Source: Octopus vulgaris
Lineage: Eukaryota
DNA length: 64,000 nt
Direction of reading: 5' to 3'
NCBI GenBank assembly: GCA_951406725.2
Contig: OX597839.1
Span: 22,196,001 to 22,260,000, forward strand
Shown here: positions 14,598-59,697 of the stretch, piece after piece
How the letters are laid out: each line of letters opens with the position of its first letter
How positions within the stretch are numbered: position 1 is the stretch's first letter
Notes under the pieces: model-generated
Databases searched by the model: none
Told to the model about the DNA's origin: nothing
What the model saw: the letters and a program-made list of their open reading frames with translations, nothing else
Position numbers and translations under genes: made by a program

Positions 14598-15025
14598 TAC
14601 CAATTTCCCTTTCTTAAAAGTGACTTTGGCACACTTTTCAAGACCAAACTCCATCCCGATATCATCACTGAATCCTTTCAAGCTCTTCATCATCTTTGCC
14701 ATATAGCTTTAAATCATCCATATAAAATAGATGGCTTATTTTCCTGTTGTCAATTATGTAGCCATATCCTGTTCTATTCAGTTCACTTGAGAGTGGTATT
14801 AGTGCTATGCAGAAAATTAGTGGTGAAAGTGAGTCACCACAGTTTATGCTAATGTTGTTTGAGCGCAATACTCCATTAGAATGATATAATTGGAGCTTCG
14901 TGTTCCATAGTGACATATTATACTTTAAAAAATCTGAAATCACAGGAGAAATTTTGAAAATGTCCAGCGATTTCTGAATCCACGAATGCGGTATGCTGTC
15001 AAAGGCTTTTTTATAATCAATCCAT
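14598..15025 (-). mobile_element. Dong/R4-like reverse transcriptase fragment
   Basis: WIDYKKAFDSIPHSWI...GDSLSPLIFCIAL...SHLFYMDDLKLY...IGMEFGLEKCA. Confidence 0.88.
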
Positions 15026-15519
15026 GAAGATTTATAAGTCTATAAAATTGTGCATAAAGTGTATATACAAAGTGCATCAAGTAATCCTCGTATTCCAATT
15101 TCTTTCAGTTTTCAATGTGTAGCAGATGGACGACTCAGACACAACACAGGCTACGCTTTCTGTTCCTTTTTTTAGATAAAGTTTTCAGAAATAACCAATT
15201 AGGCTTACCATTAATTCCGTGAAATATTCACGACTGCCGCTAGATCAGGACAAATGTGAATATTTGTTTTGTCACTTTACTTTGTCAGCTTTATTAAAAA
15301 AAGAAAAATGATGCTTTTCTTTACAAAATTTTCGAAAATATCTTCAAATCTTAAAAGGGACAGATACGAACCCATTACTTACCTTTTCGGTTAGCCTCGC
15401 TTACCGCCACCTCGGTGGAATAGACCACGTTAATATATAAGCAAACGAATGCTTTCAATATAATATAATATAATATAATATAATATAATATAATATAATA
15501 TAATATATATATATATATA

Positions 15520-18844: not shown

Positions 18845-20135
18845 CGAGGGACGTTCAATAAGTAATGCCTCTGACCCACTTGCAGTTGTTTGATCTAGCT
18901 GAAATTTTGTATGTGCAATCATTTATATCTCTATAGAGTAAGTAGCAAATTACAGCTCTGAATTAATTGTGGTTTCTGATTTACAGGTGTTTGAACCGAG
19001 TCAAGTGTGAAATGGAGCCTGTTGAGTGTCGAGCAGTGATCCTGTTTTTGTATTTGAAAGGACGCACACCACGGGAGACTTTTGATGAAATGAAAGTAAC
19101 TTATGGTGATGATGCCCCATCATATGACCTTGTAAAACGCTGGCATCGTGAATTCAAACATGGTCAGAACTCTGTGGAAACAGCTCCCAGATCTGGTCGC
19201 CCCTTCTGCCATTGATGATGCATCTGTCCGCCAAGTTGAGGCTGCCATTTTGGAAGATCGACGCATAATTATTCGCCAAATAGCCCATGAGGTCAAAATT
19301 AGTACCGGGTCTGTGGAAACTATCATTCATGACCATTTGCATATGCAAAAGGTGTCTGCCAGATGGATTCCCAGGTTGCTCACGCCTTTCCAGAAGCAAG
19401 AACGCGTCGAGTGCTCGAGGGTGAATTTGGAGATGTGCCAAGAAGATGAGTCAAAATTTTTCAAAAGACTGATTACACAGGATGAAACCTGGGTCCATCA
19501 CGATGATCCAGAGACCAAAGCCCAGTCAATGCAGTGGAAGCACCGTGACTCACCCCCTCCAAAGAAGGCAAGGGTGCAGCCCTCCGCTGGCAAGGTCATG
19601 CTCACAGTCTTCTGGGACCAGGACGGAGTAGTGATGACAGATTTTCTGGCAAAGGGTACCACAATTGCAGGAGCCTATTATGCTTCACTTTTGAGGAAAT
19701 TAAGAGAAGTTATCAAAATCAAGAGGCGGGGCAAGATCAGCAAAGGCATCCTCCTCCTGCAGGACAACGCTCCGGTCCACAACTCGCTTGTCGCCAGATC
19801 AGAGGCACAGGCGTATGGATATGAACTCCTCCCCCATCCCCCTACTTTCCTGACCTTGCACCCTCTGATTTTTACCTCTTCCCAGTCATGAAGTTGTTTT
19901 TGAAAGGAAAGCGTTTCCCAGATGATGCAGCCTTGATTTCTGAAGTCACGTCGTGGTTGGAGGACCAAGCTGGGGGTCTTCTACAAAAACGGTCTCCAGA
20001 GCTGCATCAAACAATGGGAGAAATGCGTAACTCTGGGTGGTTCCTATGTAGAAAAAGACTAATAACTGTGCCAAGTTTCGTTGCTCTACTGCTATGGGAA
20101 GTGGGTCAGAGGCATTACTTATTGAACGCCCCTCG
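18845..20135 (+). mobile_element. Full-length mariner (DD34D) transposon with frameshifted transposase
   Basis: TA target duplication, about 35-bp TIRs CGAGGG(A/G)CGTTCAATAAGTAATGCCTCTGACCCAC, transposase from ATG 19012 to TAA 20062 with WIPRLL, DETW, QDNA and PDLAPSD motifs and about three frameshifts. Confidence 0.95.
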
Positions 20136-32175: not shown

Positions 32176-33524
32176 TCATCATCATCATCATCATCATCAT
32201 CGTTTAACGTCCGCTTTCCGCGCTAGCACGGGTTGGACGGTTTGACCGGGTCTGGGAAGCCAGGGGCCGCTCCAGGCTCCAGTCTGAATCTGGCAGAGTT
32301 TCTACGGCTGGATGCCCTTCCTAACGCCAACCACTCCGTGAGTGGATTGGGTGCTTTTTACGTGCCACCTGCACAGGGGCCGGAGGGTCCGGCATCGTCA
32401 CGATCGGTTCGAGCATTTTAACGTGTCAGCGGCACGGGGGCAACGAGGTCCGGGGTACTTTGGGGATCGGGGTATTTTGGGGATCCAGGGTACTTTGGGG
32501 ATCCGGGGTACTTTGGGGATCCGGGGTACTTAGAATGGGTAGGGGGTATGTGGAATTGCTGCAGAAAGCAGCCCGGGTCTTTGTAGTCACAGCATATCTC
32601 CAGAGATCTCGGTCCTTCGCCATTGCCTCAGTGAGGCCCAATGCTCTGAGGTCATGCTTGACCACCTCATCCCATGTCTTCCTGGGTCTACCTCTCCCCC
32701 TGATACCTTCAACTGTTTGGGAGTGGCACTTCTTCACACATCTCTCTTCATCCATCCGCAGCACATGACCATACCATCGCAAGCGTCGCTCTTGCACACC
32801 ACATCTGATGCTTCTTATATCCAGCATTTCTCTCAGGATACTTACACTCTGTTTTGCGTGCACACTGACACTACACATCCAGCGGATCATGCTAGCTTCA
32901 TTTCTTTCAAGTCTACGCATGTCTTCTGCAGTCACAGCCCATGTTTCATTACCGTGAAGCATGGCAGTTCGCACACATGCATCATATAATCTACCTTTTG
33001 CTCTGAGGGAGAGGCCTTTTGTTGCCAGTAGGGGTAGGAGCTTTCTGAACTTTGCCCAGGCTATTCGTATTCTAGTGGTGATACTCTCTGTGCATCCACC
33101 TCCGCTACTAACTTGGTCTCCCAGGTAGCGGAAACTATCAACTACTTCTAGTTTCTCTCCCTGGAGTGTGATGGAATCTGTTTTCTGAGTGTCTGTTGTG
33201 TCTATTGTCCCTGTGCATCTGCCGCACATGAAAGCTATCTTATCTGTTAATTTCCCTTTAATGTTGCTGCACCTCTTATGTGTCCATAACTTACATTGGG
33301 TGCATCTTATGGAGTTTCTACCTGTACCTTTCCTACAGGTTGAGCAGGGCCATCTACCCGAGGGGATGTGTGTTGAGTACCTCTTGCTGCTTACTAATAC
33401 TTTGGTCTTTGCTACATTTATTCTAAGGCCCTTTGATTCCAACCCTTGCATCCATACCCGAAATTTCTCTTCTAGTTCCGGTAGTGATTCTGCTATGAGA
33501 GCTAGGTCATCGGCATAGAGGAGG
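32176..33524 (-). mobile_element. 5'-truncated RTE-clade (RTE-X-like) LINE
   Basis: LLYADDLALIA...GLRINVAKTKV...FRYLG...RRLRWYGHVLRM...GRGRPRKTW in an open frame, followed by a 3' UTR and (GAT)n tail. Confidence 0.92.
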
Positions 33525-33674
33525 GTGTGTTATGAGCATCTATTGACGATATATCCTATAGAAACTCAACAAACAATCAAAGATGGAGAAGGGAAGATGC
33601 TTAAAAGTTTTATAAAATTTTAATTTTAACTTTGGAACCCTCCAAAGTAAAGGATGAAAAAGAACTCAGCCTTT

Positions 33675-41590: not shown

Positions 41591-43392
41591 CAAGGTGATA
41601 TGAAAAAGTTCCAGGATTAGTTATTTTAATGGAAAATGACTTATTTACCTAAGTTATAACATCATCTCCTTTGGAATTGTCACACCTTGCACAGCAATAC
41701 ACCAGTCCCAGCGTTCCCACCACTTTTGGAATCTGGCCTGGAAGTTGCTTTCCAAAAGCGAGTCGAGGTGCTTCTGCGATGTGTTCTGGATCTCGACAAT
41801 AGTGTTAAACCGGCAACCTTTGAGTTGCATTTTCATTTTGGGAAAGAGATGGAAATCTGCAGGTGCTAAATCTGGCGAATAGGGTATGGTGCGGAAGCAA
41901 TACCATGTATTTTGGCGAGAAATTTCCGAGTGAGGAGAGTCCGGTGATAGGGTGCATTGTTGTCATGAAGAATCCAATTCTTCGCGGCCCACAGATCTGG
42001 GGTCACTTTCGTCGAATGTTCTCACCTAAACGCTTCAAAACATCAAAGTAGAACCCTCGATTGACCGTCTGCACAGTACCTCAGATGTCGAAAAAACAAA
42101 CCCCCAAAAATCGAAGAGCATGCTCGTGATTGAGCTGTGACTCTGTTCCTTCTTTGGTCAAGGGGATAAGGGCCTCTTCCATTGCAGTAACTGCGACTTC
42201 CTTTCAGGGTCATACCTATTTCTTTATTACCCACAAGGGGCTAAACACAGAGGGGACAAACAAGGACAGACATAGGTATTAAGTCGATTACATCGACCCC
42301 AGTGCGTAACTGGTACTTAATTTATCGACCCCGAAAGGATGAAAGGCTAAGTCAACCTCGGCGGAATTTGAACTCACAACGTAACGCAGACGAAATACCG
42401 CTAAGCATTTCGCCCGGCGTACTAACGTTTCTGCCAGCTCGCCGCCTTTTTCAGGGTCATACCTATTTCTTTACTACCCACAAGGGGCTAAACACAGAGA
42501 GGACAAACAAGGACAGACAAACGGATTAAGTCGATTACATCGACCCCAGTGCGTAACTGGTACTTAACTTATCGACCCCAAAAGGATGAAAGGCAAAGTT
42601 GACCTCGGCGGAATTTGAACTGAGAACGTAACAGCTGATGAAATACGGCTACGCATTTCTCCCGGCGTGCTAACGTTTCTGCCAGCTCACCGCCTTAAAT
42701 TTCAGGGTCATACCAGTAGACCCAACTCTCGTCACCGGTGATGATCCTCAACTTGAAGAAGGGGTCATCAGCAGCAGCAGAGATCTTGACAAACTTGTAC
42801 ATGATATTCTTTCTATTCAGTGGTCAGCAAGTCGGGGGACAAAACTAGTAGACATGCTGCGTATTCAGGCGTTAGGATTGCCTGCATGGACCTATAAGAC
42901 AGACGAACAACATCAGCAATGTCAACAGTTGTCCTTGGCCGATCCTCGTGTACAAGCTGATGTATTTCCTCCCCATTTCCGGGGCTGACACTCGTGACAT
43001 GTCTTCCATGTCACTCGCTCATCATCTTCCAGGGATATTTTCCCACTTTTAAAGCACCCGTGCCCCTCGAAACATTGCATACGACCCATTGCTTCATCGC
43101 CGTAATCTTGCCAAAGCCTGCTCAATGTCTCTGTAACAGACTTCCCAAGTTTAACACAAAATTTCATGTTGGCTCTTTGTTCCAACTTCCTGTCCATGAC
43201 AAAAATTGCAGACTACAGCAGACACCACATCACAAAATCACAAATTTCACAACTTGTGAAATAAACCCAGCAATGTTACTTGACACACTGCCCCATAGAG
43301 GTCACTGCTAGCTCTCACTGCATACGCAACCATGTGCTGCCATCTGTTGGCACGCTACACAACTAGTCGGGGAACTCTTTGATACCACCTCG
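41591..43392 (-). mobile_element. Degenerate mariner transposon interrupted by two SINEs
   Basis: TA flanks, imperfect TIRs, N-terminus MDRKLEQRANMKFCVKLGKS at 43197, C-terminus MKMQLKGCRF...FQKWWERWDWC. Confidence 0.88.
42214..42697 (-). mobile_element. Two full SINE A copies separated and flanked by the same target sequence
   Basis: TTTCAGGGTCATACC occurs at ~42202, ~42449 and ~42700. Confidence 0.9.
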
Positions 43393-47599: not shown

Positions 47600-48490
47600 T
47601 GTCTATCCTTCTTGTTATTGACTTCTGGAGTACTTCCACTTTTATAATGCTTTGTTTCGTGTGGGGAGATCATAAGGGGCAACAGTATTCAAGGTGGGGT
47701 CGGGCAAAAGTGGAGTAGAGAAGGATGATGGTGTGAGCATCTAGACCAGAAAGGTCTCGGGATCCAGGAGCACATCTTACGGACAAAGTCAACCTTGCTG
47801 TTTATGTGGGAACTCCAAAGTCTCTGTTGTTGTTGGATGACACTAGGGGGGGGGGAGTCGCCTGAGGGAAGAGCATATGGTAGTTTCAGAGTATCCTCTT
47901 TTCCAAAGTGGATCAAATTAAATTTATCTTCATTTAGAAGCATATTGTTCTTTTCTGCCCATTGGACAACAACAAATAGATCCGACTGAAATATGTTCGG
48001 TCTCCTATACTGTTTACAGCCTTCTGGAGCTTGGAATCTTCTGCAAAGATTTTCAATTTTCAATGTTTGATGACGTCTACAATGTCATTGATGTAGATAA
48101 TGAAGAGGAGTGGGCCCAACACAGTACCTTGTTGGACACCACCACTGATTTTGGCTGAGCTTAATCCGATTCCCTCAACCACAACATGCTGGGTTCCGTT
48201 CGTCAGGAAACACTTTATCCACTACAGCAGCTTTCCATAGACTCCAATTTTGGACAGTTTCTTCAACAGAATTTTACCGTCCACTCTGTCGCCAGTGTTT
48301 GAGCCTTCTCCCAAAGCTTTTAGAATGGTGTAGAAGCTGCGATAGGCAGTCCCTGCCATCACAGAAACCTTGCCCGGTTGCAGTTCAGTAGATTGTTGTT
48401 TTCGAGGAAGTGGGTTGTTCGCGATCTCGCCACCCTTTCGATACGAGAGGTGAGTGAAATCGGACGGCAGTTCGCTTTGGTAAATATGCT
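47600..48490 (-). mobile_element. Degenerate CR1-type reverse transcriptase fragment
   Basis: RPISLTS, SGVQQGTVLGPLLFIIYINDI, IFAEDSK and QWAEKNNMLLNEDKF motifs with frameshifts. Confidence 0.85.
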
Positions 48491-50161: not shown

Positions 50162-51543
50162 CTATCAGAAAGGAACTCTATCTCTCTTAAAAAAATATCT
50201 TTTGATAAGCATAACAAATGCGCAACCGGTAAAAAGAACTTTCACCTAATTAAATACACTCTCCCTTACTTAAATTATTTTGTCAGCATTTTCTTCATTT
50301 CCTTTTTTTTATATATCACAACTCGTGTTCCACATCTCCTTTTTTAAATATATATATATATATATATATGTATATGTATATATCTTTTAAAAAAGTAAGA
50401 TACATTGTTATATGGATGGGGATACCACATAGAGAAGATGGCCCAGACAAAGAGAAGGGACACAGAGAAGAAGGGGAAATCATTGAAGAGGTCTCAGAAT
50501 GTGTGACGAAAGAAAGCTGACAAATAAACAATCACCACTACTAATAATAATAACCCTTTCTTCTAAAGGGGGGGGTTAAGTTGAATACATCGATCCCAGC
50601 GGTTCAACTGGTACTTGTTTTATCGATCCCGAAAAGATGAAAGGCAAAGTTGACCTCGGCGGAATTTGAACTCAGAATGTAAGGACGGACGAAATGTCGC
50701 CGCTAAGAATTTCGCCCAGCGTGCTAACGATTCTGCCAGATCGACACCTTCGATAAACTAATAATAATAAAAGCTAAACTGAAGATCAAATAAATAGTGC
50801 GTGTGTTTATTGGCAAAATGACCGTCCCCACCAAATATAACAATACATTTTAATTTTTATTTAAAGGACTTTTTATCTTGCGGAGCCGCAGAATTTTCTT
50901 TCACGAAATCTCGGCCTTCCTCAAAACCCATTTTATGATATACACTGAAGTTCCTCACTATGTAGAGAATAAGTTACGTGACATCCTTGATTCAATATGA
51001 TTGGCTAAATATAGACCCCAGTTCTACCATGAGGATGGTGGAGGGGAGCGGGTGGGATAGAAGATAGTGTAACTATTTGGAACTGTGGAAGCAGGACCTT
51101 TAAGAAAACAGCGTTTTCATTCCATTCCATTTCTCCTTTTATAGTCTTTCATAATGACTTTGGTTAAATACATCTCCGGCAACTTTGAGCCGGTTTCACT
51201 GCTTGAAAGCATAACCAAATCACTGTCTTCAGCCTTAGATAAGGAAATTACATATGAAATATTATCACTCGCGATATTCTCTCATGACATAGAGGTTAGG
51301 CTGAAAAAGGACGAACGACGCGGTCTGCTAATACCGAAGGATTGCCTTAAAAAGATAATCGTCGAAACACACGTACAAAGTCGGAATTGTCACGGTTGAA
51401 ATGTTTCCATACACATAGACCCATTTGCTCTACGTTGACCGGGGGTTAAACAACAATAGCAACAACAACAACAACTACAACAACAACAACAAAACAGCAA
51501 TAATGTTTATGGAGAAGACGAAAGAAATCCAGAAAAATACATA

Positions 51544-51616
51544 TTTATTGTTTTAATAAATACAAGAAACAATAGAATAGAAATAAAGACAATAACTTTC
51601 CAACTTGGCTTTTATT
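51544..51616 (-). promoter_or_regulatory. Candidate polyadenylation signals of the precursor gene
   Basis: Minus-strand AATAAA at 51611-51616 and 51544-51549, about 190 and 255 nt downstream of the stop codon. Confidence 0.5.
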
Positions 51617-51802
51617 TTTCCGTGAAATTTCTGACAAAAGAAGTCCTACAGATGTTTTGTAAATCGATTTTAAAGTTTCTTGTTAAACGAGGAATGGTTG
51701 TTGGACAGGAGGATGATTAATGAACTTCCTCCGGAAGTGACATCATCATCCGGCTTGTTACCTTGGAAACTAGTTAGATTTAAGGCAGAAGTACGACCTA
51801 GT

Positions 51803-51890
51803 TCATTTGTAGAAGTAGAAAGGTTGTCCCGGATTGTTTGTGTCTTGACGTTTCAGTAATGAAGCTCTCTTGTAAAAACTGTCAGATCGT
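51803..51890 (-). CDS. Neuropeptide/prohormone precursor, terminal coding exon
   Basis: Acceptor atctttttttgcag|, phase 2. Encodes (R)RSDSFY-KR-ASLL-KR-QDTNNPGQPFYFYK*, followed by AATAAA signals in the 3' UTR. Confidence 0.82.
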
Positions 51891-52468
51891 CTGCAAAAAA
51901 AGATGGAAATAAATGTAAACGTCTCGGAAAAATTGTTTTCTGATATGTAACCAACAACTGTTTGTCTTTATCTTATTTCTGTTTTCTAGAATAGGAAAAA
52001 AGATGTAAAGGGCTACATACCCTCTGATCGAATTTGGCATACGACTATAAGTAAAAAGCTAATCGCCATTTTGTTTAGATTTAATGACAACAAATAATTT
52101 TTGTGTGTTTCTTAAATGGCTTACAAACACCTTCCACGCTGCAAATAATTTTTGTTGGTTAAAGAATTCATTAACATTACTTAGCCTGACAGTTTGATCA
52201 GAAGACTGGGAGGAAGTGGTTCGGTTTTTTTAGGCGGCTTTCATTTCTTTTCCCACTTTAATTACATAAGTGAAAAACGTAGAATTGGGTTGTGGAACAT
52301 CTAGTGGAAGCCATCCTTCCCTGTAATAAGCTGCCTTCCAAATTGAGAGAAAGATTAGGATTTCAACTATGAATAAATAGACTAAACCAGTTGCAGAATA
52401 CATTTACTTCCATCGATATTTGAATGGTTCATTTTATACCTTGCAGACATCTTGCCGAGCAAAGAAAC

Positions 52469-52884
52469 CTATTTCTTTATTACCCACAAGGGGCTAAACA
52501 CAGAGGGGATAAACAAGGACAGACATAGGTATTAAGTCGATTACATCGACCCCAGTGCGTAACTGGTACTTAATTTATCGACCCTGAAAGGATGAAAGGC
52601 AAAGTCGACCTCGGCGGAATTTGAACTCACAACGTAATGCAGACGAAATACCTATTTCTTTATTACCCACAAGGGGCTAAACACAGAGGAGACAAACAAG
52701 GACAGACAGACGGATTAAGTCGATTATATCGACCCCAGTGCGTAACTGGTACTTAATTTATCGACCCCGAAAGGATGAAAGGCAAAGTCGACCTCGGCGG
52801 AATTTGAACTCACAACGTAATGCAGACGAAATACCGCTAAAGCATTTCGCCCGGCGTGCTAACGTTTCAGCCAGCTCGCCGCCT
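52469..52884 (-). mobile_element. SINE family A dimer in the precursor gene intron
   Basis: Outer TSD CAAAGAAACC; internal GGTATTTCGTCTG junction. Confidence 0.88.
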
Positions 52885-52969
52885 TTCAAAGAAACCAGAC
52901 ACTTATTCTTAGGTCGTTCGTTTCCATTGTTTAACGTTCGATTAACACAACTTTTACAGCGTTGAGTTC

Positions 52970-53179
52970 CACGATAAACATTTGAGTACTTTCCCTAAAG
53001 TAGGGACAAATCGGAAATCTTTAAAGCTAGACTGATTCAGTATTGACTTGTGGAGACCTCATACATATAAGGACCACGATAAACATTTGAGTACTTTCCC
53101 TAAAGTAGGGACAAATCGGAAATCTTTAAAGCTAGACTGATTCAGTATTGACTTGTGGAGACCTCATACATATAAGGAC
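52970..53179. repeat. Perfect 105-bp tandem duplication
   Basis: ACGATAAACATTTGAG... starts at 52971 and again at 53076. Confidence 0.95.
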
Positions 53180-53596
53180 GACAAGTGGAAATGGCAACAG
53201 CTGGATTTGGGGCTTTATTGACCGTATAACGATATTTGGAGGTACATGGCCTAGTGGTTAGAGTGGCGGACTTGCGGGTTCGAATCTCAGACCGGGCGAT
53301 GTTTGTGTTTATGAGCGAAACACCTTAGCTCCACGCGGCTCCGGCAGAAGGTAACGGCGAACTTCTGCTGACTCCTTCGCCACAACTTTCACTCTTTCTT
53401 CTTGCATCTTGCAGCTCACCTACGACAGACGGGCGTCCCGCCCAGGTGGGGAACCTATACGCCAATGAAACGAGCCAGGTATGGCTCGTGAAGGAACAAA
53501 CAACAACAATATTTGATTTTGGCTGGTTTCATTTACCTTTGCACCTGATGGTGTTCAATAAGATTAATAACAGCAAGGGCTGCAAGTGACACCTAC

Positions 53597-53792
53597 CGGT
53601 ATATGTCTCCGTGGTCTTGGTAATTACTTGGATCCATCATCGAACTCTCACTGCTTTGCAACAACTGGGGCTCCATTGAACGCTTGTAAGTACCTGTTTC
53701 AACAATTCCAACACATCTGGCATATTTCTTATACAGATAGTTTACTTGTCTTCGGAATTCTAAGTTGGACAGTAATTGTTTGTAGGTCACAC
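53597..53792 (-). CDS. Neuropeptide/prohormone precursor, coding exon 2
   Basis: Acceptor tgtcttcttttag|, donor CG|gtaggt, 196 nt, phase 1 in and phase 2 out. Encodes (G)VTYKQLLSNLEFRRQVNYLYKKYARCVGIVETGTY-KR-SMEPQLLQSSESSMMDPSNYQDHGDIY(R), in frame with both neighbouring exons. Confidence 0.85.
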
Positions 53793-54315
53793 CTAAAAGA
53801 AGACAACACACACAACAAAACAGTATTTCTGAATGATATTGTAATTGTTCGGTACTAGAAACAAACTGCTGCTTTAGAAATGATGTTCGATTTAGGCTCA
53901 AGGCCAACACTTTGAAGAGTGTGGGGTTAATCGATACCACTGGTCACGCTATTTGATAGGGACTTTCTTTTAACGATCCTGGCGTATGTAAGATAACGAG
54001 ATTTGAACTGTCAAATATATACGTATCTGTTATGTGTAGTTTGCGTTCTAATGGGATAGACAACCAATTGAAAACCATTGTTATTATTACGTGTTTATTG
54101 ACTTTACATGTTACACGGACGACGACATTCAGCGTAGTGATACATTATATACTTTACACACAGTTGTACTGTTCACTAACAAATAGTGCCAAGAGTGGGG
54201 ATGTAGTTTGGCATACGCAAACACATAGATATGAATGTGTAACAGTATCTGCTTTCTTTAACTCGTCTATCTCATTTGATTATCCATTAGGAAGTTAAAT
54301 GTTAAGGCTGGTCAT

Positions 54316-54373
54316 ACTGACCATTGGTTTCGCATCTGTAAAGCGCTTAACAGTATAGGCGATTCGTCAGACT
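54316..54373 (-). ncRNA. Degenerate hammerhead ribozyme motif, same family as 62445-62503
   Basis: Minus strand CTGACGA ...TAAGCGCTTTA... GAAA CCAATGG TC; stem I is broken. Confidence 0.42.
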
Positions 54374-55227
54374 TAAATGACCGAAGGCGCATATCCGACG
54401 ACAACAGTGACAACGGCGGTGGTCGGAGTAACAGCCTAAACTGTGCTTCTTAAGACCCAAACTCCTCTCACAAAATTCATATCTGTCCTTCTCGTTAGAA
54501 TATAAAATACCATTTTTTTTAGCCTGGGCGAGTTCCAGTTCGTTTGAGAATCGTTCTATATTCAAAGAACTTGTTTCAAACAGCGAAATTCAATTCCGTA
54601 CCCATTTCTGGCTAATGTAAGCCATTGGATGTCTGTGCTATTCCTGTGGTACGCACGGCGACGGAAGAAGGCGAATTTGAAGGTTCTGAGCATAGAAATA
54701 TTTCGAGAAATATTAAAATAACTTGACGGAACTACAAAGGAAAAATAATCCAATTCCGTTTTGAAGACGCTTTATAAATACTCAGTCTCTGACTATTTGC
54801 CTTTAATCATTTGAAATCTTCCTGTAAAAAAGGAGGAGCTGCTTTCTAACAAAGGCACAAAACTCCATCTTTGGAATGTAGAGAACAAAACCAAATTCAC
54901 ATTTCAAACTTGAGAAAAGTCTTGCATACTTTTACTGTTCCCCTTACAGATTGCTTTTGTAATGTGCGAATCAGTTGATTTCTGTTTCTGAAACCCTTAG
55001 CTTATCCAGATTATCGCTTGGGCATTTACTCACAAAACCAAAATCACCAACTATTATTACTATGTGACTTATAATCTGGATACAGAAGCTGGAGCTTTCG
55101 AAGCATTTGTCCATAATTATCTTCTTTCGCTTTGGTTTTCAAAGAGATATTCACGGGGCAGCTGGCCTGGATGAGACTACGTAGTTTTACTTGTCTATCC
55201 AGCCTATTAGGTTTACATTTGAGGGTT

Positions 55228-56132
55228 TCGATGCAGCGGCTGCGGGCTGGAAGAGGTTTTGTGGCGGACCCCGCACCAAATGGCTGGGCGTGATTGGGGC
55301 AGATCTTCAGGGGCTCGACGTCCCCTTGGAGGATGCAGAGAGACTAGTGTGGGACGGTCAGCGATAGAGAGAACTGGTTTACCTGGTCGGATCTACGCAT
55401 GAGGACGTCTCTGGGAACACGAACCTGGCAGGATCCCAGTTGACTCCTGGTGTCCATATTTTTGAATGTATTCACTAACAGGGAGATTCTCAATGTTTAT
55501 TCCAGGACAGTCTTTTTTTCCGAATGACATTGTATATTATTTTAAGGTCACGTCGCAAATGGAAGTAGTACCTTGACGGCATTTTGGGGCGACCGCTAAT
55601 CGCATGTATGATGTCTGTCACAAAATATGACAAAATCTACATTTTCAGTTGCATCTTGGATCTCTTTTGTTTACCGGAGATTTTGTAGCAATCTCCTGTT
55701 CTTGGATTGTAAATGCACAAGCCTTGACAGTTTGTATGTAGAATATCTGAAGGGAGAGATAAGCAGCTCAAAACAAACATATGTTTACTTCCGTGTCAAC
55801 GACATTTGGGAACGAGTCGAGGCACGAAGAAGACTTTACGGAATATTACGTTAGGTTCCAAGTTCACAGCTGAGGTTGGAGTTAGGGATATGTAGTAGGC
55901 TTCCGAGTTAGCAGGTATATATTAGAGGGGAAAGGGCAACAAAAACCAAGGCAGGACGAGGATCTCGGGTCATGAGATGTTGACCCATCACCTGGGATAT
56001 CCTAGAAGCAGATGTAAGACATTAATTACTTCTACTTTTCCGTTTTTTTTTATTCACCTTATTCTTATTAAATCTTCTAAATGATCTGAGATACTCGTCT
56101 TGCCTTGGTTTTGTTGGCCATTTTCCTTGAAT

Positions 56133-56196
<64 letters not shown>

Positions 56197-56535
56197 TCGT
56201 GTAAGTGTGTATAGTGTACACATGTATGTATATAATGTTACTGCTAGAACAAGTATATCCACACCAATTACAATTGAACTCAACAGAACAAACAAGACCA
56301 AATACTCTAACTTTCATTCGATGCAGCGGCTGCGGGCTGGAAGAGGTTTTGTGGCGGACCCCGCACCAAATGGCTGGGCGTGATTGGGGCAGATCTTCAG
56401 AGGTTCGACGATCCCTTGGAGGACGCAGAGAGACTGGTGTGGGACGGTCAGCGATAGAGAGCACTGGTTTTCCTGGTCGGATCTACGCATGAGGACGTCC
56501 CTGGGCACACGAACCTGGCAGGATCCCAGTTGACC
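55228..56535 (+). repeat. Two ~217-bp direct repeats (55228-55444 and 56317-56535), RTE-3'-end-like
   Basis: Both run TTCGATGCAGCGGC...GATCCCAGTTGAC and translate to GGPRTKWLGVIGADLQ..., resembling an RTE C-terminus. Confidence 0.75.
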
Positions 56536-56671
56536 CCAGCCTCACCAAGCAATATCTTAAAATAGATTTATAGAGTTCTATACAGAGACGGCGCAAGGCA
56601 GTGATGGTAACATTAGATTTAGAAGCCTCAAAGATTCACTCTCTCTGTTTACGGATATAGTCTACTGGAGT

Positions 56672-57059
56672 GGAGGCGCAATGGCCCAGTGGTTAGGGCA
56701 GCGGACTCACGGTCATAGGATCACGGTTTCGATTCCCAGACCGGGCGTTGTGAGTGTTTATTGAGCGAAAACACCTAAAGCTCCACAAGGCTCCGGCAGG
56801 GGATGGTGGTGATCCCTGCTGTACTCTTTCACCACAACTTTCTCTCACTCTTACTTCCTGTTTCTGTTGTACCTGTATTTCAAAGGGGGCGGCCTTGTCA
56901 CTCTCTGTGTCACGCTGAATATCCCCGAGAACTACGTTAAGGGTGCACGTGCCTGTGGAGTGCTCAGCCACTTACACGTTAATTTCACGAGCAGGCTGTT
57001 CCGTTGGTTCGGATCAACCGGAACCCTCGTCGTCGTAACCGACGGAGTGCTTCCATCCC
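56672..57059 (+). mobile_element. SINE family C with 13-bp TSD
   Basis: TSD ATAGTCTACTGGA at 56657-56669 and 57060-57072. A related subfamily lies at ~53238-53510. Confidence 0.92.
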
Positions 57060-57830
57060 ATAGTCTACTGGAAAAAGGCGTTGGTCAATGCAGTGCAGTT
57101 GCCTACATTATGTTCTGGGTTTGTATTCCAAGAATATCAACAAAAATATTCCCTTCTATTCTTCTATTTCCCTTCCGTAATCGAAGCAATCAAATTATCT
57201 GAATGGAATTGATCCTTACCTGGCACAGTTACCACATTCTGGCACTTTCTGCTATTTTCCCTAAAACATCTCATTCAATTGAAAGAATCAGTCTATAGTA
57301 TAAAAACATTTAGATATTCGTTTCAAATTTTGGCACGAGGAGGAGGGCGAAAGTCCCTCGAGAGGATGAAAGGCAAATTCGACCTTGGTGGAATTTGAAC
57401 TCAGAACGTAAAGACGGACAAAATGTCGCTAACCATTTTCCCCAATGCAGAAACGATTCTACCAGCTCAACACCCGACCTCTACATAATATTGGTTTTAA
57501 GTTTTGGCACAAGGCCAACCATTTCGAGAGTGGGTAATCCGATTACATCAACCCCAGTACTCAACTGGTATTTATTTTTACCGAAAGGATGAAAGACACA
57601 GTCGACCTCAGCGGAATTTGAACTCAGGCGGACAAAATGCCGTTGAGCATTTCGCCCGGCGTGCTAATGATTCTGCCAGCTTGCTGCCTCATCTTTACAT
57701 AATATTCATTATATGTAAATGTATTCTTTAAAGACGGAACTATAAACGATTAACAGCTTCAGAAGCAGATCAATGAAAAACAGAAAAAGATCGACAATGT
57801 TTATGAGTAAATGAGAAAAGTACTGCTTAC

Positions 57831-57954
57831 CTTTGGCATCGGCTATTTTTTGAACGACTTGGAGCGGATTCGTTCCGCATGGGTAAGCATGAGTAATCAA
57901 TGAGAGACAGACACACATAAACATCAATCCAACTAATTGTTTCTGGGCGAACAT
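57831..57954 (-). CDS. Secreted neuropeptide/prohormone precursor, coding exon 1 (signal peptide)
   Basis: ATG at 57954 gives MFAQKQLVGLMFMCVCLSLITHA|YPCGTNPLQVVQKIADAK, a hydrophobic signal-peptide-like N-terminus. The exon has an upstream acceptor ttttttcttgcag| (exon starts 57974) and donor AAG|gtaagc, phase 1. Confidence 0.85.
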
Positions 57955-59697
57955 TTTGTGGGAGGAGAGGAGGCCTGCAAGAAAAAAACAAAAACAGAAC
58001 GGACAAAAGAATTATTTTGTAATTCATTCAGGGACGTCTTAAGTACAGAGAGGAATGGGCGAGGAGGCAGCGAGCTGGGTTTATAAGCCTGTGGTTCTGA
58101 TTTCGATACCACTGTAAGACTGTACTCTCTGTAACGAAGTTGTTCAAAGGGTTAAGAATCCCTTTGGTCATGAATGACTATGGAATTGCACCTAGAATGT
58201 TCCTCTCCAAGGCACAAGTCCCGACAAGGTCGTTTATAGATTTCGTTGAACCATGTCGCAAGGATCAGACAAAATTATATTTGTTAAAGCAAGGAATCTC
58301 TGCTAAAGCTTTTTTACAAATAATGGTTCTTGTTTTTGATACAAGACCAACAGTTTTGAGGGAAGGGGGTCGAGTCGGTTACATTGACCCCAGTACTTGA
58401 CTGGTACTTTATTTTATTACCCCCGCCCCCCGAAAGGAGTAATGTAAAGTTAGCTTCAGCGGGATTTGAACTCAGAACATTAAGAGCCAGAACAAACTAC
58501 TTGACAGAGATGAGCAGTCACCCATGCATACCAGCCTCCCCTCTCCACACCACCGATCTTATCCAAAGGAAAGGAAAAGGCCAATACAGCTTGGAACAAG
58601 CGTTGTTGCGACCCATTTCCACAGCTGAATGAACTGGAGAAACGTTAAGCGTTTTGCTCAAGAACACAACACGAAGCCTGGTCCGGGAATCAAACCCACA
58701 ACCTCACGATTGTAAGCCAGACTTTCTAACCAATGATCCATGCGCCTTCAAACACACGCGCACGCACGCACAAAATATGCCAAACAGCTAAGAAGCTCGC
58801 TTTACAATCATGAAGTGCCGATTGTGGGAAAATGCCATTTTCTGTAACCTTCGGTTGACTCGTACCTTGTGAGTGAAATTATGTAGATGGAAACTGCATA
58901 GAAGCGCATTGGGTGGATTGTATCTGGAATTGAAACGGTTCACCTATTACACTTCGTCACAATGATTCTGCCTGAGAATTATGTTCAAGGTACGAGTGTC
59001 TGTGGAATATTCAGCCACTGATACGTTAATTCAACGAGTCTGGTAGTCCGATTTATTGTGTGTGTGTGAGACAGACAAATGAAGTTTAAAATACACACTG
59101 TATACTGCATGAAGATTTATTAAAATTAAAATTAATATACATAACCGGTTTCACGTTTGTTTGATTTTCAAAAGTATCGTTTCTCAAGAACCAAACAGTT
59201 TGCGTCGCAGCTCCACTTTCCTCTAAACTTACGCTTTTGAAAATCTTACAAATGTGAAAAACGGTTAAGCGTATTTTAAAATAAATGTGTACGTGTGTGT
59301 CTTTGTGTTTTTTTTCCTGTCTTCCGCAATCGGTGTTGATTTGTGTACATCCCCGTAACTTAGCGGTTAAAAACTTCTAGCGAGACCTAGAATCGAAACC
59401 TTACAACCCTGATAGTTGGGTTCAGTCCACATTCGTGTCAAGCGACACGCCCTGATTATCAACCAATCAGCTTGCAGCGATACCACGCCATATAAAACTT
59501 AGTGAAAAGTTCTATGACTTTTTCGCGCGCTTATCTTAGTATTAAGGCAAACCCCCAGCAGAGGGAGCTGCAGAGACAGCCTCCAGACGACACACATTTT
59601 CCCGTCTCGTCGCAACCAAGCCAGAGCACGGCCTAGTATAGCAGAAACCACTTTGAGTTATCCTTTGCTGAATCCAGTGAAAAATGAAAAGAATTCT

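Follow-up and report, generated by a model that had tools for sequence, protein, structure and literature searches.

The closest described system to the gene reported here is the Triangle family of doppelganger-related peptides (DREP), which was named in 2023 by Koch et al. (PMC10501145). Its founding members are ELT98795, ELT98797, and HAMN01029001, and the squid Triangle DREP is reported there to be mainly neuronal; function and receptor were still listed as unknown in 2026 (PMC13542836). The second system is the family of molluscan FYFY precursors (PMC5996578, PMC8398477), of which scaphopod and solenogaster members are found in the PMC6425005 supplements together with a Lottia member labelled 'pedal peptide 2-like'. 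The scaphopod precursors contain both xSSFY-KR and GxFYFY-KR peptides, SSFY first (PMC6425005), and oyster FYFY1 and a Dreissena precursor have a terminal FYFYK. Finally, vertebrate FAM237A/B (NPGL/NPGM) are described as ligands of GPR83 (bioRxiv 10.1101/2022.09.27.509696, PMC4625114), whose receptor group is common to bilaterians (PMC5818035, PMC8557429). No paper was found that names the five accessions or the six motifs and ids of the family analysed below. The oyster, scallop, and Thiel supplements do not contain the family motifs; in the part of PMC6425005 covered, they occur, among the matches listed, only in the unsorted protein sets of supplement file 2. The term 'FYFY' is absent from the main texts of PMC10501145, PMC13542836, and PMC6425005.

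The octopus gene lies on the minus strand of a 64,000-nucleotide stretch of the Octopus vulgaris genome (contig OX597839.1), hereafter called the window, whose positions are used throughout. Exons 57954-57831, 53792-53597, and 51890-51803 splice to exactly 135 amino acids across two GT..AG introns of 4038 and 1706 nt in phases 1 and 2, and the product is a 100% match to XP_029651722 of O. sinensis (LOC115224902, annotated 'uncharacterized'). Both junctions that the initial annotation had proposed to check in RNA occur in public Logan contigs, which come from four runs of four studies and whose RNA type is a guess: junction 57831/53792 was found in all four runs, and junction 53597/51890 is listed for three, one contig covering both sides in the remaining run. 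Since the contigs skip canonical introns exactly, spliced mRNA is implied. A further exon is located upstream, outside the window (G000:C26:22276763-22276909), beyond an intron of 22,788 nt, and is joined to the others by a single 738-nt contig. This exon has an in-frame AUG in CCACCATGG, from which translation would give 167 amino acids, and is preceded by a TATA-like box and a TGACGTCA palindrome. The octopus gene is real, spliced, and composed of four exons. The three exons initially annotated splice as described, with GT..AG borders and fitting phases, but they are not the whole set; position 57974, taken as the gene start, is a splice acceptor, and the same contig runs on to the upstream exon. 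Within the window, the gene is organized as follows:

57831..57974, minus strand: second exon (exon 1 of the initial annotation), with its acceptor at 57975 and the AUG of the 135-aa form at 57954
57886..57954, minus strand: predicted signal peptide (hydropathy), residues 1-23, with probable cleavage between THA and YPC
57831..57885, minus strand: N-terminal part of the Triangle peptide, residues 24-41 and the first base of Gly42
57879-57877, minus strand: Cys26 codon; predicted helix 30-41 lies in the same part
53686..53792, minus strand: C-terminal part of the Triangle peptide, residues 42-77, with predicted helices 45-48 and 52-73
53715-53713, minus strand: Cys68 codon, followed by the conserved tail V-E-T-G-T-Y
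53685-53680, minus strand: KR after the Triangle peptide
53597..53679, minus strand: poorly conserved acidic spacer, which covers residues 80-106 and takes in the first two bases of the Arg107 codon
51866..51890, minus strand: start of the last exon, RR-SDSFY-K[RK], a putative xSSFY-type short peptide
51803..51865, minus strand: ASLL-KR-QDTNNPGQPFYFY-K-stop, a putative FYFY-type C-terminal peptide
51528..51802, minus strand: 3' UTR, with AATAAA at 51616 and 51549; 51528 is the end of the longest contig

As judged by sequence comparison, the conserved core of the octopus precursor is a 54-aa two-cysteine Triangle DREP peptide, which supplies the family that the initial annotation could not assign. 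A HMMER search of 1.84 billion proteins with alignment A2 gave 23 matches at E<=0.001, none recognised as an FYFY precursor; among them is the founding Capitella member ELT98795 (P0029; E 4.8e-4), which shares 29 of 85 residues with the octopus protein in a pairwise alignment (E 2e-11, for a single comparison) and is matched by hhalign with a probability of 96.7. When scored with a profile built from 18 distant mature peptides, the three octopus-like peptides reach 49-51 bits, and shuffled controls reach at most 10.6 bits (1000 shuffles each, 980-992 of them scored). In particular, C26 and C68 are invariant in all 21 aligned sequences, K78 of the processing site is likewise invariant, with R79 present in at least 90% of the 21, and an A-[YH]-P-C boundary at the predicted signal cleavage is common to most relatives. 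Together with a hydrophobic N-terminus (Kyte-Doolittle peak of 2.8 at residues 7-20, hydropathy only), these residues agree with the secreted prohormone, signal peptide, dibasic sites, and Cys26-Cys68 peptide proposed earlier, the disulfide itself being predicted. AlphaFold2, supplied with 21 rows, predicts helices at 30-41, 45-48, and 52-73, with pLDDT of 88-96 across residues 31-70. The 54-aa peptide is identical at 52 of 54 positions in Argonauta, and the acidic spacer is as variable as anticipated (12/27 identical in Argonauta, 8/27 in P0006). The partial records P0007, P0027, and P0028 diverge near the phase-1 intron position at Gly42.

Like known Triangle DREP precursors, the octopus protein is a predicted secreted precursor with a two-cysteine peptide directly after the signal peptide, a dibasic end, three predicted helices, and sequence homology to the founder ELT98795. 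It differs in the length of the mature peptide (54 aa versus the published 59-65, owing to a gap of 5 residues ahead of the long helix), in its tail (T-G-T-Y, elsewhere T-G-Y-[FY]), and in the conserved last exon that encodes SDSFY and FYFY. The Mya mature peptide has 55 residues, so the Triangle length range is wider than published. Relatives occur in bivalves, gastropods, and an annelid, and a cephalopod-only distribution, with the uncharacterised cephalopod signalling system envisaged at first, is rejected; no taxon is recorded for P0006 or for 8 of the 19 distant members. No second Triangle gene was found in the octopus genome by weak searches, in which a Lottia query recovered the known gene at only E 5.2. 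In Pfam, P0004, P0003, and the first A3 member fell below every family cut-off (best E among 21 members, 0.0023). A PDB sequence search gave no matches, Foldseek with a low-confidence first model gave none in the PDB at E<=0.001, and the ESM Atlas returned nothing but generic look-alikes of prohormones (best score 0.90; under the rule that the tool itself sets, this family is probably incorrect).

The SFY and FYFY motifs occupy the separate last exon. RR-SDSFY-K[RK] is identical at 9/9 positions in O. bimaculoides, 8/9 in Argonauta, and 9/9 in P0006, and FYFYK-stop is invariant across the octopus-like group. Both motifs are present in all four octopus-like precursors, where SDSFY always has dibasic flanks, and neither occurs in any of the 19 other family members; partial or redundant records (P0002, P0007-P0011, P0027, P0028) were left out of this count. 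The pattern SFYKR...FYFYK gave three matches, the only true one being the octopus gene; a tandem SFYKR pattern gave four, versus 23 in a reversed control, and inspection revealed no in-frame repeat. A weak word search with the C-terminal 40 residues among longer proteins yielded one candidate and no match.

With the molluscan FYFY family, the octopus precursor shares predicted short peptides that carry no amide and close with SFY-KR and FYFY-K(R), and, like oyster FYFY1 and the Dreissena precursor, it terminates in FYFYK-stop; these common motifs uphold the tie to bivalve FYFY peptides raised at the outset. The likely link of the tail to FYFY depends on two motifs, each 5-6 residues long, which were compared by eye with the supplement sequences, and no alignment score backs it. 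Unlike FYFY precursors, the octopus protein has only two cysteines after the signal peptide rather than a 10-cysteine long peptide, for which reason membership of the whole precursor in that family was rejected, and it has a single copy of each peptide type. It also lacks the GRYG..G[RK] lead-in, a feature of the supplement sequences rather than a published criterion, and has QDTNNPGQP instead (RLRNYSGEH in P0006). No Cys-rich exon pattern was found in 104 kb around the gene.

In other molluscs the two systems are encoded separately: scallop has a Triangle (XP_021340602) and an FYFY (XP_021376732) gene, as does limpet (Lotgi 163434 and Lotgi 236400, respectively). In the part of the PMC6425005 supplement available, two full-length cephalopod 10-Cys proteins end without an FY tail, as do chiton and aplacophoran 10-Cys proteins, and solenogaster xSSFY repeats follow a third kind of leader, short and Cys-containing. 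The matching octopus 10-Cys gene lies on contig C19, another chromosome than the Triangle gene, and no F[YF]K[RK] and no in-gene FYFY was found on its own strand within 50 kb. The cephalopod 10-Cys genes may be related to FYFY genes as paralogues, not as orthologues. The Argos Pfam model, which was used as a proxy for the 10-Cys domain on the strength of a presumed resemblance, missed the known 10-Cys gene, and that search was uninformative. The FY exon begins in phase 2 and, in the octopus 10-Cys gene, the intron that follows the 10-Cys domain is apparently in phase 1; thus, the transfer would not have been a clean exon swap.

The reading preferred here is that the octopus gene encodes a hybrid neuropeptide precursor, in which a Triangle DREP peptide is probably joined to an FYFY-type last exon captured in the octopus lineage. 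The FY cassette, which in bivalves, scaphopods, and limpet stands behind a 10-cysteine domain, would thereby have become the last exon of a Triangle gene. In prohormones generally, convertases cut dibasic sites and carboxypeptidase trims the basic residues. In the octopus precursor, signal peptidase is predicted to cut between THA and YPC, the Cys26-Cys68 bond to close the three helices into a loop, and the conserved V-[ED]-T-G-x-[YF] tail to form the receptor-contacting end. Convertase cuts at KR78-79, RR107-108, and KR114-115, followed by carboxypeptidase trimming, would release (a) the 54-aa Triangle peptide, intact and without an amide, (b) SDSFY, and (c) a peptide from the C-terminus that ends in FYFY and whose N-terminus would differ by species. 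Product (c) would have 13 residues with pGlu only where KR-Q is retained, namely in this genome and O. sinensis; O. bimaculoides has KR-P-Q, Argonauta K-P-R-P-D, and P0006 K-P-R-R-L. The headline product of the initial annotation, pGlu-DTNNPGQPFYFY, is thus not conserved across the octopus-like group, and the internal RR and KK invoked for a two-chain product sit in the long predicted helix and are missing from P0006. As neither product is conserved, both are unlikely to be the functional core. With both kinds of peptide on one precursor, one cell would likely co-release two signals. By analogy with the squid Triangle DREP (PMC10501145) and the oyster FYFY peptide (PMC8398477), the octopus gene may be expressed in neural tissue.

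It is unlikely that the gene encodes an ordinary Triangle DREP precursor whose SFY/FYFY tail arose independently, by convergence or as a native second peptide, with no fusion. Two exact motif types would have to arise by chance in the scaphopod order, for which a rough, after-the-fact estimate in the 56-aa tail is about 7e-11, and none of the 19 other members carries either. The missing GRYG lead-in and the mismatched intron phases do suit an independent origin, and the Capitella Triangle precursor ends in R-P-F-F-V-W-K-stop, in register with P-F-Y-F-Y-K-stop, while the Lottia tail contains F-F-N-Y-K-K; aromatic tails may therefore be a native feature of the family. The Triangle cleavage site itself reads G-Y-[FY]-K-R; hence, short duplications could seed Y-K-R motifs. 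It is highly improbable that the Triangle peptide is the sole signal, with the tail serving folding, sorting, or processing, or that the product is a non-neural gland secretion. Such a role would accord with runs that carry no tissue label, with the uptake of Triangle peptides into cone snail venom (reported in PMC10501145), and with the unconserved N-terminal cleavage site of the FYFY peptide; the dibasic sites around SDSFY in all four octopus-like precursors and the mainly neuronal squid peptide argue against it, and the near identity with Argonauta would suit a hormone better than a fast-evolving toxin. Still less probable is an ancestral Triangle-plus-FY gene, retained in the octopus lineage, with a shift of the FY cassette to the 10-Cys gene in the other molluscs: the tail-less chiton and aplacophoran proteins in the available supplement imply that not all molluscs combine 10-Cys with FY, but all the Triangle precursors seen in bivalves, gastropods, and an annelid would have to have lost the tail, and the solenogaster xSSFY repeats in that same part occur without a Triangle peptide.

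A likeness of Triangle peptides to FAM237/NPGL is a weaker lead. In architecture only, the Triangle peptide resembles the published descriptions of FAM237: three predicted helices, one long-range disulfide, and an exposed conserved C-terminal tail, with Gly 7 and the dibasic site 10 residues past the last Cys in both. Unlike Triangle peptides, FAM237A has 80 residues, and its C-terminal amidation is reported to be essential for GPR83 binding; the Triangle family has F or Y at the position of the amide-donor Gly, and all 23 listed members end in [FY]-K-[RK], with the amidation Gly absent before the dibasic site. No vertebrate protein was recognised among the HMMER matches, and no FAM237/NPGL match in the HMMER, ESM Atlas, Pfam, or PDB sequence searches. 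It is quite improbable that Triangle peptides are the protostome counterparts of FAM237/NPGL and the missing ligands of invertebrate GPR83-type receptors, and that octopuses fused this ancient hormone gene to an FYFY cassette, forcing co-release of two signalling systems kept apart in other molluscs.

The Triangle and FYFY families are both orphans of unknown function. If the octopus tail is truly a captured FYFY cassette, the gene would be a dated case of a neuropeptide module switching partners, and the FY peptides would have a 10-Cys partner in bivalves, scaphopods, and limpet, a short Cys leader in solenogasters, and a Triangle peptide in octopuses. A single promoter would then control two signalling systems in the nervous system of cephalopods. 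An 'uncharacterized' octopus gene gains a name and a set of products to synthesise, namely the intact 54-mer, SDSFY, and the peptides ending in FYFY, and by analogy the Triangle peptide may serve as a concrete candidate ligand for invertebrate GPR83.

The 135-aa form of the octopus precursor is spliced from three coding exons:

57954-57831, minus strand, first coding exon
53792-53597, minus strand, second coding exon
51890-51803, minus strand, third coding exon

Both introns (4038 nt, phase 1, and 1706 nt, phase 2) are bounded by GT..AG and are skipped exactly by contigs from four runs of four studies, which carry no tissue label and whose RNA nature is a tool's guess. The first junction (57831/53792) is found in all four runs; the second (53597/51890) is recorded in the joints table for three, and the fourth run has a single contig spanning both sides. 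The initial annotation's exons, canonical splice sites, and phases are thus borne out by both junctions. The protein is identical to O. sinensis XP_029651722 ('uncharacterized'), and the same 135 amino acids form the C-terminus of a predicted O. vulgaris protein. Several other open frames of the window resemble, by eye, fragments of repeats, and no other host gene is evident among the long open frames listed:

19136-19888 (plus), 41657-41962 (minus), 42925-43212 (minus), mariner-type transposase-like open frames
32429-33529 (minus), 14668-15039 (minus), 47692-48084 (minus), LINE reverse-transcriptase-like open frames

The gene is not limited to three exons. Position 57975 is a splice acceptor, joined by a 738-nt contig of run X1 and by contigs of runs X9 and X6 to an exon at G000:C26:22276763-22276909 (the host contig), 22,788 nt upstream and outside the window. 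Translation from an in-frame AUG in CCACCATGG would give a product of 167 aa, and from another AUG in the same frame one of 150 aa.

G000:C26:22276763-22276978 (L003:6763-6978), minus strand, first exon and the sequence in front of it, outside the window, with two upstream in-frame AUGs
L003:6951, minus strand, TATA-like box, located 42 nt upstream of where the contig ends
L003:6978, minus strand, TGACGTCA palindrome, 27 nt above the TATA-like box

The TGACGTCA palindrome, a cAMP-response element, occurs twice in 104 kb, one occurrence being this copy; such elements are frequent in neuropeptide promoters, which is a hint at most. O. bimaculoides, Argonauta, and P0006 (the precursor of an octopus-like relative) likewise have an uninterrupted reading frame over the 30-35 codons of the N-terminal extension, with little conserved sequence. 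Many distant relatives start where the MFAQ methionine aligns, so the 135-aa form appears to have the ancestral start. Provided that the longer form is still cleaved, the mature products would be the same.

The initial annotation assigned the precursor to no classical family; however, its 54-aa peptide almost certainly belongs to the Triangle doppelganger-related peptides (DREPs). Searching 1.84 billion proteins with a profile gave 23 matches. Ten of these were identified, and all are uncharacterised; they come from Pinctada, Mercenaria (two), Mizuhopecten, Mactra, Batillaria, Lymnaea, Lottia, Mya, and Capitella. The Capitella match, ELT98795, is among the founding Triangle DREPs, which Koch et al. 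2023 (PMC10501145) describe as peptides of 59-65 aa with one disulfide and three predicted helices forming a loop. According to that study, arthropods and flatworms have them too, expression in the squid D. pealeii is mainly neuronal, and cone-snail toxins mimic them. Compared directly, the octopus protein and ELT98795 share 29/85 residues (hhalign probability 96.7). C26, G27, Y65, C68, G75, and K78 are common to all 21 aligned sequences, and a profile of 18 distant mature peptides scores octopus-like peptides at 49-51 bits, whereas no shuffle scores above 10.6. An AlphaFold2 model built from 21 rows has helices at 30-41, 45-48, and 52-73 (pLDDT 88-96), with mostly low confidence past residue 77; five rows gave a weaker model. 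A second Triangle subtype (Mercenaria P0013/P0021, P0015, P0023, P0025) ends in C-[TRV]-[QR]-[MA]-[VMI]-[NQH]-[TS]-G-Y-[FY]-KR, and its two Mercenaria copies lie on equally long contigs, suggesting duplication in bivalves.

Conservation is uneven along the precursor. Argonauta and P0006 match octopus at 52/54 and 35/54 residues of the Cys peptide, 12/27 and 8/27 of the acidic spacer, 8/9 and 9/9 of RR-SDSFY-KR, and 2/6 and 1/6 of ASLL-KR, while FYFYK-stop is unchanged in both. The anticipated invariant cysteines (21/21) and variable spacer were found, but FYFY was confined to four octopus-like sequences and missing from 19 others. The KR-Q site proposed to yield a pGlu peptide reads KR-P-Q in O. 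bimaculoides and is missing in Argonauta and P0006; the internal RR and KK, suggested to give a two-chain product, are both missing in P0006 and lie within the long predicted helix. Therefore, neither product is a conserved feature.

The last exon is probably a captured cassette of the FYFY family, whose precursors combine a 10-cysteine long peptide with an FYFY peptide at the C-terminus, which MS has detected in oyster (PMC8398477); a scallop sequence is a further example. In supplement sequences, oyster FYFY1 and Dreissena precursors terminate in FYFYK, the Lottia member carries many xSSFY-KR copies, and three scaphopods have xSSFY-KR and then GxFYFY-KR. The octopus exon contains one SSFY-type and one FYFY-type motif in the scaphopod order. 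Both occur in 4/4 octopus-like precursors and either in 0/19 other Triangle relatives, a count in which eight lack a taxon on record and partial and redundant records are left out. A rough, after-the-fact estimate puts the chance of both motifs at ~7e-11. The gene is the sole true match to SFYKR...FYFYK in the genome, and scallop and limpet keep Triangle and FYFY as separate genes. The suggested link to a bivalve 'FYFY' precursor thus holds for the motif types; however, it rests on two short motifs without an alignment score, the GRYG lead-in is missing from the octopus tail, and named carriers of the tail are Octopus and Argonauta only. The intron phases also speak against a captured cassette, being 2 before the FY exon, whereas the intron that follows the octopus 10-Cys domain seems to be in phase 1.

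Alternatively, the aromatic tail could be native to Triangle precursors, because Capitella P0029 (ELT98795) ends in R-P-F-F-V-W-K-stop, in register with octopus Q-P-F-Y-F-Y-K-stop and possibly a native second peptide, and the Lottia tail includes F-F-N-Y-K-K. Weak searches of the octopus genome found no second, tail-less Triangle gene. The 10-Cys genes of cephalopods could be paralogous, rather than orthologous, to FYFY genes. Among the supplement sequences covered, nothing follows the last cysteine in the two full-length cephalopod 10-Cys proteins, and the same holds for those of chitons and aplacophorans; in two solenogaster precursors, a short Cys leader precedes xSSFY repeats. The matching octopus gene encodes a secreted protein:

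G000:C19:52349833-52357510 (another contig; L019-L020), plus strand, 10-cysteine gene of FYFY-domain type, at least four coding exons

An intron directly follows its last cysteine, and no FY-K tail was found on its strand within 50 kb. Its domain presumably resembles Argos/giant-lens; the Pfam Argos model failed to detect the gene. No 10-Cys exon pattern occurs in 104 kb around the Triangle gene.

Homology of Triangle peptides to vertebrate FAM237/NPGL appears improbable. FAM237A (NPGL) is predicted to fold into three helices with a single disulfide and to expose a conserved C-terminus that binds GPR83 (bioRxiv 10.1101/2022.09.27.509696), and a rat NPGM C-terminal fragment (PMC4625114) has Gly seven residues past the last Cys and, because its amide-donor Gly is nine past, a dibasic site at 10, as in the Triangle family. 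However, amidation is essential in FAM237A and lacking in the Triangle family, and no search yielded a recognisable vertebrate homologue. GPR83 has protostome orthologues, with no invertebrate ligand named in the passages covered (PMC5818035, PMC8557429).

Databases already contain the gene model, labelled uncharacterised, and each of the two families has a name. No literature joining them or naming these accessions was found in the texts covered, among them two PMC6425005 supplement files in part; the PMC10501145 supplements or the Sepia neuropeptidome paper may already include a cephalopod precursor with an FY tail. A 2026 table (PMC13542836) lists Triangle DREP function and receptor as unknown.

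Beyond the observed transcript, homology, and conservation pattern, the signal peptide is predicted to be removed between THA and YPC, and a Cys26-Cys68 bond and three helices are predicted to form. From general prohormone biology, cuts at KR78, RR107, and KR114, followed by trimming of basic residues, would release an intact, non-amidated, basic 54-mer (pI 9.5, ~6.2 kDa), SDSFY, and an FYFY-ending peptide whose length varies with species. These products would come from the same neurons and probably act on separate GPCRs.
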